24,000 nucleotides of DNA from Peptostreptococcaceae bacterium (GTDB lineage: Bacteria > Bacillota > Clostridia > Peptostreptococcales > Peptostreptococcaceae). A program made the position numbers and the translations under genes. A model generated the notes under the pieces. It had not been told where the DNA came from. It made no database searches and saw only the letters and a program-made list of their open reading frames with translations. The number at the start of each line of letters is the position of its first letter. Position 1 is the first letter of the stretch. Location of the stretch: contig JAOARY010000051.1 of the NCBI GenBank assembly GCA_025210335.1, positions 144,643 to 168,642 of the forward strand, in the 5' to 3' direction. Shown here one piece after another: positions 1,176 to 23,781 of this stretch.

Positions 1176-1352
1176 ATGGCAGTACCTAAGCGTAGAACAG
1201 CTAAAAGTGCGAGTCGTTCAAGAAGAGCAGCTAACAATAAAGTAACTTTTGCTGGATTTGTTAAGTGCCCTAATTGTAATGAGCCTAAATTAGCTCACAG
1301 AGTTTGTCCTGATTGTGGACACTACAACGGAAAAGAAGTTGTATCTAAGTAA
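1176..1352 (+). CDS. rpmF: 50S ribosomal protein L32 (zinc-ribbon form)
   Basis: Not in the ORF track (58 aa). AAGGAGG RBS at 1162-1168, ATG 1176, TAA 1350-1352. Translation [58 protein letters not shown] has the L32 N-terminal MAVPKRR signature and CxxC...CxxC. Confidence 0.95.
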
Positions 1353-7074: not shown

Positions 7075-7302
7075 ATGTTTGAAAAGGTAAGAGATATAAT
7101 AGTAGATCAATTAGGATTAGATAATGGAGATGAAGTTACACCAACAACTTCTTTAATAAATGATTTAGAAGCAGATTCACTAGATGCTGTTGAAATAATG
7201 ATGGCTGTTGAAGATGAATTCGATATAGAAGTTCCAGATGAAGAAGCTGAAAAGTTCCAAAACATTGGTGATATAGTTAAATTTATAGAAGCTAATAAGT
7301 AG
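7075..7302 (+). CDS. acpP: Acyl carrier protein
   Basis: 75 aa, with the LEADSLD phosphopantetheine attachment motif and a strong AAGGAGG RBS. Confidence 0.95.
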
Positions 7303-9544: not shown

Positions 9545-9886
9545 ATGATTAATTATTTTGAAATTAAATGTCATACGTTAGAAACTTTTTGTGATTATTT
9601 TGTAGTTGAAGAAAAAGGACTAGATGATGCGAAAACCTCAACCATTCTTCATAATCAAGCTATAATAGAGAAAGAAGATGTGAAATCTTTAATAATTTTA
9701 ACTACAGTCATTTATAATTATTTAAAGTTTAATAAAAAAAATAGTGATGAAAATTTAAGTGAATTAGAGAGAATAGAAAAAATTTATGAAAAAATAGAAT
9801 TAAAAAAATTTTTAAATGAGGAAGATATACATTATTTAGAAGAGGATATTAAATATATAAGAAATTATTGCGATAACTCAAAATAA
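9545..9886 (+). CDS. Hypothetical protein (113 aa, acidic/Lys-rich, no family recognised)
   Basis: ATG preceded by TAAGGAG, and an uninterrupted ORF. I could recognise no motif. Confidence 0.5.
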   Translation: MINYFEIKCHTLETFCDYFVVEEKGLDDAKTSTILHNQAIIEKEDVKSLIILTTVIYNYLKFNKKNSDENLSELERIEKIYEKIELKKFLNEEDIHYLEEDIKYIRNYCDNSK

Positions 9887-14077: not shown

Positions 14078-14527
14078 GTGCTGTTTTTTTCAAAATTACA
14101 ACAAAACGAACTTTTTTGGACTTGTGTTTTAGCTTGGTTTTTGGCACAATTAATAAAGGTTATTTTGACTTTTTTCTTTAAAAAGACTTTGGATTTATCA
14201 AGATTTGTTGGGTCAGGAGGAATGCCAAGTTCTCATTCTTCTTTTGTTACTAGTTTGGCAACTGGAATGGGAATTATAAAAGGTTATGATTCTCCTATGT
14301 TTGCAATGTGTTTGATTTTTGCTCTTATTGTTATGTATGATGCAGCTGGTGTAAGAAGGGCTGTTGGAAAACAAGCTAAGATAATAAATCAAATGGTTGA
14401 GGATTTACAAGAACATAAGTCAAATGTTTTTAATGAAAAACGCCTAAAAGAATTAGTGGGACATACTCCTGTTGAGGTGTTTTTTGGAGCATTACTAGGA
14501 ATAATAGTTGCAAATATAATGATTTAA
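14078..14527 (+). CDS. Divergent PAP2 family membrane protein (DUF212, acid phosphatase/vanadium haloperoxidase-related, YuiD-like)
   Basis: GTG start after GGGAGG. It has several hydrophobic helices and the diagnostic GGMPSSHS and YDAAGVRR motifs. Confidence 0.75.
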   Translation: MLFFSKLQQNELFWTCVLAWFLAQLIKVILTFFFKKTLDLSRFVGSGGMPSSHSSFVTSLATGMGIIKGYDSPMFAMCLIFALIVMYDAAGVRRAVGKQAKIINQMVEDLQEHKSNVFNEKRLKELVGHTPVEVFFGALLGIIVANIMI

Positions 14528-14533
14528 AAAAAC

Positions 14534-14552
14534 TTATAGCGTATGCTATAAT
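14534..14552 (+). promoter_or_regulatory. Ambiguous element at the 5' edge of the large RNA: a 7-bp hairpin and/or an extended -10 promoter
   Basis: TTATAGC (14534-14540) GTAT GCTATAA (14545-14551), flanked by an A run and a T-rich tail, looks like a terminator. The same bases read TGCTATAAT (14544-14552), a perfect extended -10, placing a start at about 14559, where the RNA closing helix begins. Confidence 0.4.
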
Positions 14553-14558
14553 TTAATT

Positions 14559-15154
14559 ATTAGGTGATACAGTATTCTAGTCATATTTTTTATTCTTGAA
14601 GGCGGGGCTAAAAATCCGTCAAAGGGCATATCGATGAAGTTTCTTGTTGAGGCTTGTGACGCCCAGTTATGGGTCTTTTCAGGGAGTAAAGAAATAGGGG
14701 GCGATCTGCAACGGCATGCGGGCGATGACCCTCGTTTCGTGGAGACTAGTTTGTAATATAACTAGAGAAACCTAAGCCGCTTTTATAAATTGATCATATT
14801 TTAAGGAGCCATACGACGATTTGTGGAATGCTTAGAGTAGCCTGCCTTGAGGTGGAATTTGGGGAAAGAAAGATCAGGTTTGATTTTTTTGGCGCTAAAA
14901 AATCAAATCATTGCTTTCAAAAACTTCTTCTGCAAAAGAGGCTAGGGAATAAAAAGGATGTTAAGGAAAACTTCTAGACTGAAAGTAAGGTAGGGATTGA
15001 AGTGTGGTCTAAGTGGTAGTCCAGTCTTATATGTGGTAACAGTATAAAAATGATTTTAAAAGGAAACTGCTTTCTTGGCGACATCAAAGTAATCTTTTGG
15101 GAAATCCTACTGGACCTAAAGCCGCAGAATTTATCTATCTTACCATCACCTAAT
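14559..15154 (+). ncRNA. ole: Large (about 600 nt) structured non-coding RNA, OLE (ornate large extremophilic) RNA class by size, structure and synteny
   Basis: No ORF of 60 aa or more on either strand across 14528-15226. Hand-counted G+C is 216/530 over 14601-15130, against 17/60 in the adjacent CDS. A 10-bp closing helix joins 14559-14568 and 15145-15154, and there are several internal helices, some needing G-U pairs valid only on the + strand. The element sits between ispA and a 4-TM protein followed by dxs, as described for ole-oapA. Ends are approximate (about +/-30 nt). Confidence 0.78.
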
Positions 15155-15161
15155 CTTATAT

Positions 15162-15215
15162 ATTTAATTTATATGAAAATAATTTTTTAAAAGATTTTTT
15201 TCATATAAATTAAAT
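15162..15215 (+). other. Perfect 18-bp A/U-only hairpin between the RNA and the oapA RBS
   Basis: ATTTAATTTATATGAAAA (15162-15179) is the exact reverse complement of TTTTCATATAAATTAAAT (15198-15215), with an 18-nt loop. The 3' arm ends 1 nt before GAGGTGG (15216-15222). No U tract follows. Confidence 0.6.
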
Positions 15216-15226
15216 GAGGTGGTTAT

Positions 15227-15814
15227 TTGGACAGGAAGAATTCAAATATTAAATGGGTTATATTGGTTACAATAACGAGTTTTTTTCTTGGAATATTGAT
15301 AAGTATTGGTTCGGATTTATTGCTTAGAAAATCGAATATAGTGATTGCTTTTATAATACTTTTTATAATTGTTTTAATTGGTATTGTTTTTGATGCACTT
15401 GGGATTGCAGCAACTTCATGTGAGGAAAAAAGTTTTCATTCTATGGCTTCGTGTGGGATATTAGAAGCAAAAGCGGCTATTAGAGTTGTTAGAAATGCTA
15501 GTGTTGTATCTAGTGTTTGTAGTGATGTTGTTGGAGATATATGTGGAGTTATAAGTGGAGCTGCTGCTGCTACTATTGTTATCAAGATTGTTCAGATTTA
15601 TGGATTCTCCACTGTTTCTGTGCTTAGTATATTAAGTAGTGCATTTATTGCAGCTATAACCATAGGTGGTAAAGCGTTAGGTAAAGAGATTGCTATAAAT
15701 AATTCAAAAAAAATTGTATATAAACTCGGGATTATTCTTTTTAAAATAGAGAATATACTTGGGTTTAAGCTTTTGAAGTTAAACAGCAAGAAGAAGAGGG
15801 TGAAAAGATGCTAG
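15227..15814 (+). CDS. oapA: Small 4-TM membrane protein, OLE-associated protein A (OapA) candidate
   Basis: TTG start 4 nt after GAGGTGG. 195 aa with four hydrophobic segments (WVILVTITSFFLGILISIG, IVIAFIILFIIVLIGIVFDALGIAA, VVGDICGVISGAAAATIVIKIV, VSVLSILSSAFIAAITIGG) and a basic tail, KLNSKKKRVKRC. It lies immediately 3' of the RNA and overlaps the dxs start by 7 nt. Confidence 0.7.
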   Translation: MDRKNSNIKWVILVTITSFFLGILISIGSDLLLRKSNIVIAFIILFIIVLIGIVFDALGIAATSCEEKSFHSMASCGILEAKAAIRVVRNASVVSSVCSDVVGDICGVISGAAAATIVIKIVQIYGFSTVSVLSILSSAFIAAITIGGKALGKEIAINNSKKIVYKLGIILFKIENILGFKLLKLNSKKKRVKRC

Positions 15815-17676
15815 AACAAATAAATTCTCAAAGGGATATTAAAAAATTAAATATAAATCAGTTAAATGTATTATCAAAAGATATTAGAGAGTTTTTAATA
15901 GAAAAGGTTTCTAAAACCGGAGGTCATTTAGCTTCAAATTTGGGTGTTGTAGAACTTACACTGGCAATGCACTATGTTTTTGATAGTCCAAAAGATAAAT
16001 TTATATTTGATGTAGGGCATCAATCTTATGTTCATAAGATTTTAACTGGTAGAAAAGAGAGATTTGATACATTAAGACAATTTGAAGGACTTAGTGGTTT
16101 TCCAAAGAGGAAAGAAAGTGAACATGATATTTTTGAAACTGGTCATAGTTCAACATCTATTTCGGCTGGGCTTGGTATAGCAAAGGCTAGAGATGTAAAA
16201 AATGAAGATTTTAATGTAATATCATTAATTGGAGACGGTGCTTTAACTGGAGGAATGGCTCTTGAAGCTTTAAATCACTTAGGTCATGACAAGACAAAGA
16301 TGATAGTTATACTAAATGATAATGAGATGTCTATTTCAAAAAATGTTGGAGGGATGTCAAATTATTTATCTACTCTTAGAGTTACCAAAACATACAAGAA
16401 ATTAAAAGAAGAAGTAGAAAATATATTTCATATGATACCTAAAATTGGTAAGAATATGTATAAGACAGCTACTAAGGTTAAGGGTAGCGTTAAGAATTTT
16501 GTATTTGAAAATAATATGTTTGAAGATATGGGTGTTAATTATATAGGCCCTATAGATGGTCATGATTTAAAAAGTCTTATTTATATTTTGGATAAAGTAA
16601 AGAAGAATATAGACGGACCTGTTTTAATTCACGTGCTTACAAAGAAGGGAAAAGGTTATAAGTTTTCTGAAGATAGACCAGAAAAATATCATGGAGTTTC
16701 AAAATTTAATACAAAAGAAGGCTTAAAAACAAGTAATAAAGAAACTTACTCGTCGGTAGTAGGAGAGACTTTATGTGGCTTAGCAAAGGAAGATAAAAAT
16801 GTTGTTGCAATAACAGCAGCTATGCCTGATGGTTGTGGCCTTTGTAATTTTAAAGAAGAGTTTAAAGATCGTTTTTTTGATGTAGGTATAGCAGAGGGGC
16901 ATGGAGTATCATTTTGTGCTGGACTTGCAAGTAATGGAATCAAACCTTATTTTCCAGTGTATTCAACATTTTTACAAAGAGGTTTTGATCAAATATTGCA
17001 TGATGTTGGAATTCAAAATTTACCGGTTAAATTTTTATTAGATAGAGCTGGACTTGTTGGAAATGATGGAGAAACACATCATGGAGTTTTTGACCTTAGT
17101 TATTTATCAATGATTCCTAATATGTGTGTTATGTCTCCTATGGATAAATTTGATCTTATAAATATGTTAAAAATAGCAAAAGATTTAAATGGACCATGTT
17201 CAATTAGATACCCTCGTGGTGCTATATTTGAATATAAAAAAGAAGATAGAACTTTTGATTTTGCTAAATGGGAAGTGTTAAAAGAAGGTAAGCAAATAGT
17301 TCTTTTAGGGATAGGAAAAGGTGCTATAAAGGCATTAAATATTGGTATTAGATTGAAACAATTTGGTATAGATGCTATGATAATAAATGCTAGATTTTTA
17401 AAACCACATGATGAAATTTTATTAAAAGATATAACAAATAATTATGATTTAATATATACTATAGAGGATAATGTGATTATAGGTGGATTTGGTTCTTATA
17501 TAGGAATGAAGTTGGAAGAACTAAATTATGCAGGTAAATTAAAAGCATTTGGTATAGAGGATGAGTTTATTGAGCATGGAGATGTTGATTTATTAGAAAA
17601 ATCGATAAATTTAGATGAAGATTCTATACTTGAATTTATATTAGATGAAATAAAAGAAGTAAGAGAGGTTATATAA
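15808..17676 (+). CDS. dxs: 1-deoxy-D-xylulose-5-phosphate synthase
   Basis: 622 aa with GGHLASNLGVVELT, GHSSTSISAGLG and GDGALTGGMA (ThDP binding) motifs and transketolase-like C-terminal domains. Confidence 0.95.
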   Translation: MLEQINSQRDIKKLNINQLNVLSKDIREFLIEKVSKTGGHLASNLGVVELTLAMHYVFDSPKDKFIFDVGHQSYVHKILTGRKERFDTLRQFEGLSGFPKRKESEHDIFETGHSSTSISAGLGIAKARDVKNEDFNVISLIGDGALTGGMALEALNHLGHDKTKMIVILNDNEMSISKNVGGMSNYLSTLRVTKTYKKLKEEVENIFHMIPKIGKNMYKTATKVKGSVKNFVFENNMFEDMGVNYIGPIDGHDLKSLIYILDKVKKNIDGPVLIHVLTKKGKGYKFSEDRPEKYHGVSKFNTKEGLKTSNKETYSSVVGETLCGLAKEDKNVVAITAAMPDGCGLCNFKEEFKDRFFDVGIAEGHGVSFCAGLASNGIKPYFPVYSTFLQRGFDQILHDVGIQNLPVKFLLDRAGLVGNDGETHHGVFDLSYLSMIPNMCVMSPMDKFDLINMLKIAKDLNGPCSIRYPRGAIFEYKKEDRTFDFAKWEVLKEGKQIVLLGIGKGAIKALNIGIRLKQFGIDAMIINARFLKPHDEILLKDITNNYDLIYTIEDNVIIGGFGSYIGMKLEELNYAGKLKAFGIEDEFIEHGDVDLLEKSINLDEDSILEFILDEIKEVREVI

Positions 17677-22911: not shown

Positions 22912-23781
22912 ATGAATATTAATATAAAATATTATATTATAACCATAAGTTCTATATTCATAGCTTTAGGAATTGGAATATTAATTGGTTTTAATTTAAA
23001 TAATAAGGATGTATTTAAAAAAGAACAGATGAATATAATAAGTGACTTGGAAAAAAAGATTGTTTCATTGAAATCTGAAAAAGAAATTTTTGAATCTACA
23101 GTTGATAAATTAACACATGATAAAGAAAATTTAAATAAATATATACAAACAACATTTGCAAAATTAGTAGAAGATGAACTTTTAGAAAAAAATATAGGAA
23201 TACTTAGATTAAATGAGGATTATTTTTATAATGAGGTAGAGGAATTAATAGTAAGTGCTAATGGAAGTGTTGCTTTTGATATATCTTTAAAGGAAGAACT
23301 TAAAAATATTAATATAGAAGATTTAAATACTATGTTTAATTTGGTCGATGAAAATAAAATGAAAGATAAAAATGATTTTTATAAGTTTATTTTTGATAAT
23401 ATTTTTGTACAAAGAGATGAAGTTATAATTCAAAAATTAAAGGAATCAAATATACTTTCGTTAAATACTTTAAATGAGTTTGAAAACTTAGATGGTTTAT
23501 TTGTATGTGGTGGGTCTTTAGAATCAGATAAAAATGGTTTAGAAGAGTTTGATAAAATATTTTTAGATTACTTTAAAGAGAAAAAAACAAATATAGTTGG
23601 TGTGGAAAAGTCTATAGTTGATTATTCTTATATAGATTTCTTTAAGAAAAATAAAATATCTACGGTTGATAATATGGATGAATTTGTAGGAAGATATTCA
23701 GCATTGAAGGCTATTTTGGGAAATAAAGGTCATTATGGAACTAAAAAAACTGCACAATCATATATACCAGAGGTGAAATAA
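22912..23781 (+). CDS. MctB-like (Pfam 'copper transporter MctB' family) single-pass membrane protein
   Basis: The N-terminus NIKYYIITISSIFIALGIGILIGF matches the conserved RYHxxSLxAVFLALxxGxxLG start of the family, followed by a coiled-coil segment. Its position after steA fits. Confidence 0.5.
   Translation: MNINIKYYIITISSIFIALGIGILIGFNLNNKDVFKKEQMNIISDLEKKIVSLKSEKEIFESTVDKLTHDKENLNKYIQTTFAKLVEDELLEKNIGILRLNEDYFYNEVEELIVSANGSVAFDISLKEELKNINIEDLNTMFNLVDENKMKDKNDFYKFIFDNIFVQRDEVIIQKLKESNILSLNTLNEFENLDGLFVCGGSLESDKNGLEEFDKIFLDYFKEKKTNIVGVEKSIVDYSYIDFFKKNKISTVDNMDEFVGRYSALKAILGNKGHYGTKKTAQSYIPEVK

Follow-up and report, generated by a model that had tools for sequence, protein, structure and literature searches.

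OapA has been defined by the Breaker laboratory as the usual immediate 3' neighbour of the ole RNA gene and as a protein of 21 kDa with four predicted transmembrane (TM) helices (PMC12265935, PMC11332333, PMC9723947). A cluster of positive charges has been described on its cytoplasmic face (PMC12265935, PMC11332333, PMC9723947). In H. halodurans the protein is membrane-inserted and exposes both its N- and its C-terminus to the cytoplasm (Block et al. 2011 and later work, via PMC12265935, PMC9723947, PMC11332333). It dimerises, and its binding to OLE RNA is cooperative, takes place near P2 and P4a and involves no fewer than two proteins for each RNA (PMC12265935, PMC9723947). It is needed for the membrane localisation of OLE RNA, and the OLE ribonucleoprotein (RNP) serves the tolerance of cold, short-chain alcohols (ethanol), excess Mg2+ and poor carbon sources (PMC12265935, PMC9723947). 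In recent models based on cryo-electron microscopy, part of OLE even crosses the membrane (PMC12265935). Here we describe the open reading frame (ORF) at positions 15227..15814 of a stretch of 24,000 nucleotides (nt) from a Peptostreptococcaceae bacterium (GenBank assembly GCA_025210335.1, contig JAOARY010000051.1, positions 144,643 to 168,642 of the forward strand), which is called the window in the following. The ORF lies between ole and dxs and very probably encodes the OapA orthologue of this bacterium, as the original prediction had proposed.

OapA is weakly homologous to the CNNM domain (DUF21, PF01595) of MpfA, CorB and CorC and lacks the CBS and CorC domains of these proteins (PMC11332333). 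A DxxxD motif is distinctive of OapA and is lacking in CNNM domains, whereas the conserved proline of CNNM domains is lacking in OapA (PMC11332333). In B. halodurans both aspartates of the motif are replaced in the dominant-negative PM1 allele (D100A and D104A; PMC9723947). The OLE RNA gene of the window was found at 14548..15165 (+) as a full-length match to Rfam RF01071 that covers model positions 1-616 of 616 (E 1e-122; 427.9 bits, the gathering score being 50), and the oapA ORF begins 61 nt past its end. The window protein shares with H. halodurans OapA the place between ole upstream and dxs downstream, the size of about 21 kDa (20.8 kDa in the window), four predicted TM helices, a basic predicted cytoplasmic face, the DxxxD motif at residues 100/104, the lack of CBS and CorC domains and the weak likeness to CNNM. 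The OapA sequence that Kretsch et al. 2025 printed in their Supplementary Table 4 (PMC12286853) aligns with the window protein nearly end to end (residues 1-184), at 34% identity and E 1e-28. The Lederbergia lenta protein that occupies the same slot between ole and dxs is 42% identical to the window protein (E 3e-45) and 53% identical to the printed OapA (E 5e-58). Thus every feature of OapA that can be tested by sequence is present in the window protein, namely the adjacency to ole, the DxxxD motif, the four helices, the alignment with published OapA and the linkage of its family to OLE (78 of 78 testable loci), and the ORF is assigned to OapA for this reason. No observation contradicts the assignment.

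The ORF belongs to a large family. In a large protein collection 1868 homologues were found at E <= 1e-3; the 120 of them that were listed comprise 181-239 amino acids (aa), and the best non-identical one among these is 54% identical to the window protein. Furthermore, 185,579 species-representative genomes were scanned with two conserved peptide patterns, which yielded at least 594 relatives. The best 80 of these were examined, and the identity of the window protein to any species-representative genome is 55% at most. Together with the window protein the 80 constitute the 81 orthologues on which the following counts are based. At least 95% identity was observed at 25 positions, including W10, D56, G59, F70, H71, M73, A91, V94, C98, D100, V101, G103, D104, I105, G107, S110, G111, T145, G147, G148, K149, G152 and K153. 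The motifs DVxGD and TxGGKAxGK are invariant over the 81 orthologues and F-H-x-M-A is nearly so. As such numbers of homologues and conserved positions are far beyond chance, the ORF is a real conserved gene.

Linkage of this family to the RNA was assessed in the 80 related loci by nhmmer searches with the OLE sequence of the window as query. Of the 80 loci, 78 carried OLE upstream of oapA and on its strand. These 78 are all the testable loci, since in the remaining two (L007 and L018) the contig ends less than 200 nt upstream of oapA and the presence of OLE there cannot be judged. In this sample, therefore, the family was not found to be widespread without the RNA, in line with the near-complete mutual inclusion of OapA and OLE across species that is reported in the literature. 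The original prediction had described OapA as always encoded next to ole; almost always is the more accurate wording (PMC9723947, PMC11332333). The next gene 3' of oapA was dxs in 71/80 loci and tlyA in 7/80. The gene 5' of ole, where recognisable, was ispA in 29 loci, and a DUF212 gene stood immediately 5' of ole in 14/80. The 80 loci span Peptostreptococcales-like clostridia, Oscillospiraceae, Tissierellaceae, Thermoanaerobacter, Syntrophomonadaceae and Bacillaceae (Lederbergia, Siminovitchia and Fervidibacillus), and the closest OLE and OapA relatives are those of Peptoclostridium, Geosporobacter, Alkaliphilus and Marinisporobacter. A hidden Markov model (HMM) of the family detected a single gene in each locus and no further oapA copy in the window.

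Some of these loci showed peculiarities of their own. In L073 and L077, the two loci in which the genes are not directly adjacent, the OLE end is separated from the oapA start by 387 nt and 817 nt, respectively. The OLE match was split in two pieces in L062 and L077, suggesting an insertion inside the RNA gene. In L060 (3965-4579) the oapA frame is broken, and ORFs of 63 aa and 122 aa both match the OapA HMM, while L070 (4133-4567) carries an N-terminally truncated oapA ORF of 144 aa; OLE is located upstream in both. These broken frames may represent frameshifts, pseudogenes or errors in the assembly of metagenome-assembled genomes.

Several points limit the assignment to OapA. The printed OapA (PMC12286853) carries no species name, and its machine-read text is apparently short of a few letters; the one-residue gaps in it fall at otherwise invariant positions and therefore look like dropped letters. 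The H. halodurans protein WP_010898928.1 was not among the 120 matches listed for either of the two queries, the window ORF and the L. lenta protein, as both lists were taken up by closer relatives, nor was H. halodurans among the 80 genome loci. The 42% identity to the L. lenta orthologue from the Bacillaceae is indirect evidence on this point. Scans of the window protein against Pfam and NCBIfam were empty even at E <= 10, and the oapA family is without a curated public model. Neither the single protein nor an 18-member profile retrieved a relevant sequence from the PDB, the only hit being a chance match to NccX (E 1.2). The co-occurrence with OLE covers the best 80 of at least 594 relatives. 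Moreover, the window protein departs from its family at two near-invariant positions: S69 (codon 15431-15433) occupies the place of a proline present in 75/81 orthologues (E-K-P-F-H), and S99 (codon 15521-15523) that of an asparagine present in 76/81 (C-N-D-V). Owing to the replacement of the family proline by S69 the window protein is free of proline altogether. It further differs from published OapA by an identity of just 34%, and from many orthologues by its N-terminal extension, which comprises 9 residues before W10 instead of 20-35.

The oapA coding sequence (15227..15814, +) encodes 195 aa with a calculated pI of 9.9, starts with TTG and ends with TAG. The start site agrees with the original prediction of a TTG 4 nt after GAGGTGG and directly 3' of the RNA: the Shine-Dalgarno sequence GAGGTGG, read from the sequence, occupies 15216..15222 (+) and is followed by TTAT and by the TTG at 15227, OLE having ended at 15165. 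This TTG is the earliest possible start because an in-frame TGA lies upstream at 15215-15217. The next in-frame start is L13, and its use would remove W10, which is conserved in 79/81 orthologues. The identical protein was gene-called in a contig of the Joint Genome Institute (JGI) with the same start codon. A further argument for this start is the numbering of D100 and D104, which equals that of the PM1 allele in B. halodurans.

At its 3' end oapA overlaps with dxs, the gene for 1-deoxy-D-xylulose-5-phosphate synthase (15808..17676, +; PF13292 DXP_synthase_N, E 6.5e-126, with profile position 1 at residue 2). The overlap of 7 nt (15808-15814) that had been noticed earlier was found again, with the dxs ATG at 15808 and the end of oapA, including its stop codon, at 15814. 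The ribosome-binding site GAGGGTG and the ATG of dxs lie inside the codons of the basic OapA tail (KKKRVKRC) at 15780-15810 (+), and this stretch doubles as coding sequence and as translation signal for dxs. The junction of oapA and dxs is tight in most loci, the two genes lying within 30 nt of each other in 60/71 as judged from longest-ORF calls; the exact overlap of 7 nt is not conserved.

The membrane architecture was assessed with Kyte-Doolittle hydropathy in 19-residue windows and with an AlphaFold2 model built on an 18-sequence alignment, which reached a mean predicted local distance difference test score (pLDDT) of 80.4 and a predicted template modelling score (pTM) of 0.67. The model contains helices at residues 5-35, 38-64, 68-75, 79-89, 91-125, 127-158 and 160-178. 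The four hydrophobic segments claimed before, one of them rich in small residues, reappeared as four Kyte-Doolittle peaks and four long AlphaFold2 helices. TM helix 1 (15254..15316, +; residues ~10-30) starts from W10 and has its hydropathy peak at 11-29 (2.28) within the model helix 5-35. TM helix 2 (15338..15406, +; residues ~38-60; hydropathy 37-55, 3.29; model helix 38-64) carries the conserved motif GIxFDxxG, in which the intramembrane residue D56 and G59 are each found in 80/81 orthologues. It is followed by a predicted cytoplasmic loop (15407..15517, +; residues 61-97) with the two short model helices 68-75 and 79-89 and with the motifs E67-x-(P/S)-F-H-S-M-A and L-R-N-A-x-x-V-S, to which the conserved residues F70, H71, M73, A91 and V94 belong. 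TM helix 3 (15518..15586, +; residues ~98-120; hydropathy 101-119, 2.02; model helix 91-125) is the small-residue-rich one, the segment VVGDICGVISGAAAATIV corresponding to residues 101-118. The DxxxD motif D100-V-V-G-D104 (15524..15538, +) is located at its beginning, and D100, V101, G103, D104 and I105 are all present in 81/81 orthologues. TM helix 4 (15605..15670, +; residues ~127-148; hydropathy 130-148, 1.97; model helix 127-158) leads into the motif T145-x-G-G-K-A-x-G-K153 (15659..15685, +) at its predicted cytoplasmic end, with T145, G148, K149 and K153 in 81/81, G147 in 80/81 and G152 in 79/81 orthologues.

Both termini are charged as had been described. The N-terminus MDRKNSNIK contains 3 K/R and 1 D, and the basic C-terminal tail (15752..15811, +; residues 176-195) contains 8 K/R and no acidic residue. 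With both termini inside, 19 K/R would face the cytoplasm (N-terminus, loop 61-97 and C-terminal region) against 3 in the two short outer loops. By the positive-inside rule the window OapA is thus predicted to adopt an N-in/C-in topology.

The relation of OapA to the CNNM/CorB/CorC transporters was examined at the level of structure as well as of sequence. The top five PDB matches of the AlphaFold2 model in Foldseek were all CNNM-type TM domains (E 0.016-1.4, template modelling score (TM-score) 0.37-0.44). They included the archaeal CorB entries 7m1t and 7m1u and the TM domain of bacterial CorC (7cff), and the lower ranks were noise. The CNNM profile PF01595 was weakly matched by 16 of 18 family members (best E 7e-07), whereas the window protein itself gave no match to it even at E <= 10 and lies below every Pfam threshold. 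Pfam revealed no CBS or CorC/HlyC domain in the window protein, which ends 47 residues past TM4, and no CNNM/CBS paralogue was found with the OapA HMM in the window or the 80 loci. As far as the structural model indicates, the window protein lacks CBS domains and is distantly related to the CNNM/CorB/CorC TM domain, in agreement with the published picture of OapA (PMC11332333). The only solved structures to which the model bears a resemblance, a weak one, are those of the CNNM, CorB, CorC and MpfA group (PDB 7M1T, 7M1U, 7CFF). Most family members show a weak profile similarity to this group, and acidic or polar residues inside membrane helices occur in both. It differs from CNNM by four TM helices instead of three, by the presence of DxxxD and by the absence of the conserved CNNM proline, and from the full CNNM/CorB/CorC proteins by the absence of the CBS pair and of the CorC/HlyC domain and by its strict tie to an RNA gene. 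The remote kinship to CNNM explains why homologues are recorded as "Mg2+ and Co2+ transporter CorB" or "CBS domain containing-hemolysin-like protein"; these names are misleading because no CBS domain is present.

This kinship raises the question of mechanism. OapA could be a CNNM-type transport module for divalent cations (Mg2+) that is regulated by OLE RNA, in which case the tethering of the RNA to the membrane would be a by-product of its role as the regulatory domain. We consider this a possibility of some substance, though not the likelier reading. It concerns the mechanism and not the identity of the protein and can be compatible with the assignment to OapA. The confinement of the structural matches to the TM domains of CorB and CorC points in this direction, as do the weak PF01595 matches of 16/18 family members and the position of D56, D100 and D104 as invariant acidic residues in predicted membrane helices. 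The literature further reports that ole and oapA knockouts are hypersensitive to Mg2+, that MpfA is anticorrelated with OLE, and that the D100A/D104A mutant is dominant-negative (PMC9723947). However, the likeness to CNNM is weak (TM-score ~0.4, E >=0.016, no PDB sequence match), OapA has one helix more than CNNM and is devoid of the CNNM proline (PMC11332333), the cited OLE/OapA papers contain no transport assay of OapA, and ion flux is beyond what sequence can show.

An ordinary metal transporter of the CorB or CBS hemolysin-like type, placed next to ole by a coincidence of operon structure, is a very improbable alternative. Apart from the record names of homologues and the weak PF01595 matches nothing points to it, whereas the protein has only 195 aa, no CBS or CorC domain and an empty Pfam scan, carries DxxxD and lacks the proline (both opposite to CNNM), and stands next to OLE in all 78 testable loci across Bacillaceae, Oscillospiraceae, Thermoanaerobacter and Syntrophomonadaceae. 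A plain CorB transporter is effectively refuted by this domain content and strict linkage. That the ORF is a chance open frame in the A+T-rich DNA between ole and dxs, as its non-ATG start and the silence of the curated family libraries might suggest, can practically be dismissed in view of its 1868 homologues, its 25 positions at least 95% identical in 81 orthologues, its strong Shine-Dalgarno sequence and the identical protein called in the JGI contig, and a spurious frame is refuted by this conservation.

With the ORF taken as OapA, a function can be outlined by analogy to H. halodurans. The window OapA would insert with both termini in the cytoplasm and dimerise, would bind OLE cooperatively near P2/P4a in a ratio of two or more proteins to one RNA, and would thereby localise OLE at the membrane. 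The RNP so formed would contribute to the tolerance of cold, short-chain alcohols, Mg2+ in excess and poor carbon sources. A published hypothesis holds that OapA may also handle a divalent cation and that OLE RNA takes over the part played in MpfA/CorB by the regulatory CBS and CorC domains. Since D56, D100 and D104 lie within the membrane and the predicted fold is CNNM-like, divalent-cation handling is suggested for the window protein as well.

The original prediction had regarded the basic termini as RNA-contact surfaces. This is plausible, and it is the weakest part of the earlier finding. The C-terminal tail has a net charge of at least +3 in 72/81 orthologues, while its sequence and length are variable. 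The idea is weakened because the tails vary, because the N-terminal extension of the window protein is unusually short, and because the tail codons double as the ribosome-binding site of dxs. Basic residues are, in contrast, conserved at the predicted cytoplasmic helix ends, namely R89 (R/K in 80/81) and K149 and K153 (both in 81/81). From this conservation R89, K149 and K153 appear at least as likely as the basic termini to be putative RNA contacts.

The foregoing elements can be combined into a further reading, which we regard as rather unlikely. OapA would then act as the membrane component of a divalent-cation transporter under the control of RNA, with D56/D100/D104 as the metal site and OLE in place of CBS/CorC, situated in a variant locus that ties the RNP to polyprenyl-phosphate metabolism. 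The variant traits entering this improbable joint reading are S69 and S99, the DUF212 gene that separates ispA from ole, and the long A/U hairpin in the spacer between ole and oapA. Its transporter part is already a published hypothesis, so that the lineage-specific part alone would be new.

The window carries a complete canonical ole-oapA-dxs module, and its OapA is an ordinary, fairly divergent member of a known family that would not surprise a specialist. On its own the locus is of small importance, and questions on OapA such as its RNA contacts, stoichiometry and ion transport are not advanced by it alone. It corrects the generic database names "CBS domain containing hemolysin-like protein" and "CorB", and the OapA family gains one divergent orthologue by it. 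The comparison of 81 sequences provides candidates for mutation, namely D56, D100, D104, the F-H-x-M-A loop, R89 and T145-x-G-G-K-A-x-G-K153, and mutating these conserved residues is more promising than mutating the basic tails with their variable sequence.

The spacer between ole and oapA contains an A/U-only hairpin of 25 bp (15161..15216, +) with a minimum free energy of -18.7 kcal/mol and z = -5.6 against 200 shuffles. It ends on the first base of the oapA Shine-Dalgarno sequence. No U-tract follows the hairpin, and no intrinsic terminator was called anywhere from ispA to dxs. Strong folding of the spacer (z < -3) was found in 9/76 related loci, several of which rank comparatively high. 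A family-wide hairpin is rejected on this count, and the element is lineage-specific. It may mark the 3' end of OLE, act as a processing or stabilising element, or modulate the translation of oapA. Co-transcription of the three genes ole, oapA and dxs is likely in view of their common strand, the lack of a called terminator and the overlap of the oapA stop with the dxs start. A promoter-like site was observed at 14523-14552 (+), with the extended -10 sequence TGcTATAAT ending at 14552, at the 5' edge of the OLE match and just past the stop of the DUF212 gene. Promoter-like sites in the region are no more numerous than in shuffled controls, and the site at 14552 is weak evidence.

The genes of the window form a run on the + strand of a genome with a low, clostridial G+C content (28.5%). 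In the order of the run, as assigned by Pfam, these are the end of ackA, yceD, a 58-aa ORF, a fapR-like gene, plsX, fabH, fabK, fabD and fabG, followed by a 75-aa ORF, fabF, a CGGC-domain gene, a YjbR gene, a 113-aa ORF, asp23 and nusB. Then come a TsaD-family gene, xseA, xseB, ispA, the DUF212/PAP2-like gene and a gap of 700 nt that contains OLE, and finally the oapA ORF, dxs, a tlyA-type FtsJ methyltransferase gene, argR, recN, spo0A and a SteA-like gene. The Pfam scan was made on the ORFs other than 1176..1352, 7075..7302 and 22912..23781. From size and position alone, the 58-aa ORF at 1176..1352 is possibly rpmF and the 75-aa ORF at 7075..7302 possibly acpP.

Among the scanned window ORFs of at least 90 aa there was no Pfam match to KOW (OapB/YbzG) or L7Ae (OapC/YbxF), and to this extent the earlier statement that OapB and OapC are not encoded in the window holds. 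According to the literature OapB is present in ~60% and OapC in ~45% of OLE-bearing species; as both thus occur in only part of these species, nothing can be concluded from their absence here. The 113-aa ORF at 9545-9886 (+), between the YjbR gene and asp23, encodes an acidic, helical-looking protein. It was rejected as a candidate for OapB because Pfam was silent on it and its best PDB match was a weak one to an unrelated chain (E 0.0058).

Between ispA and ole, finally, a gene at 14078-14527 (+) encodes a DUF212/divergent PAP2 membrane protein of 149 aa (PF02681, E 4e-53). The text of the 2025 OLE review makes no mention of PAP2, DUF212 or a phosphatase. The location of this PAP2-like protein beside ispA and dxs leads us to the guess that it might be a polyprenyl-diphosphate phosphatase.

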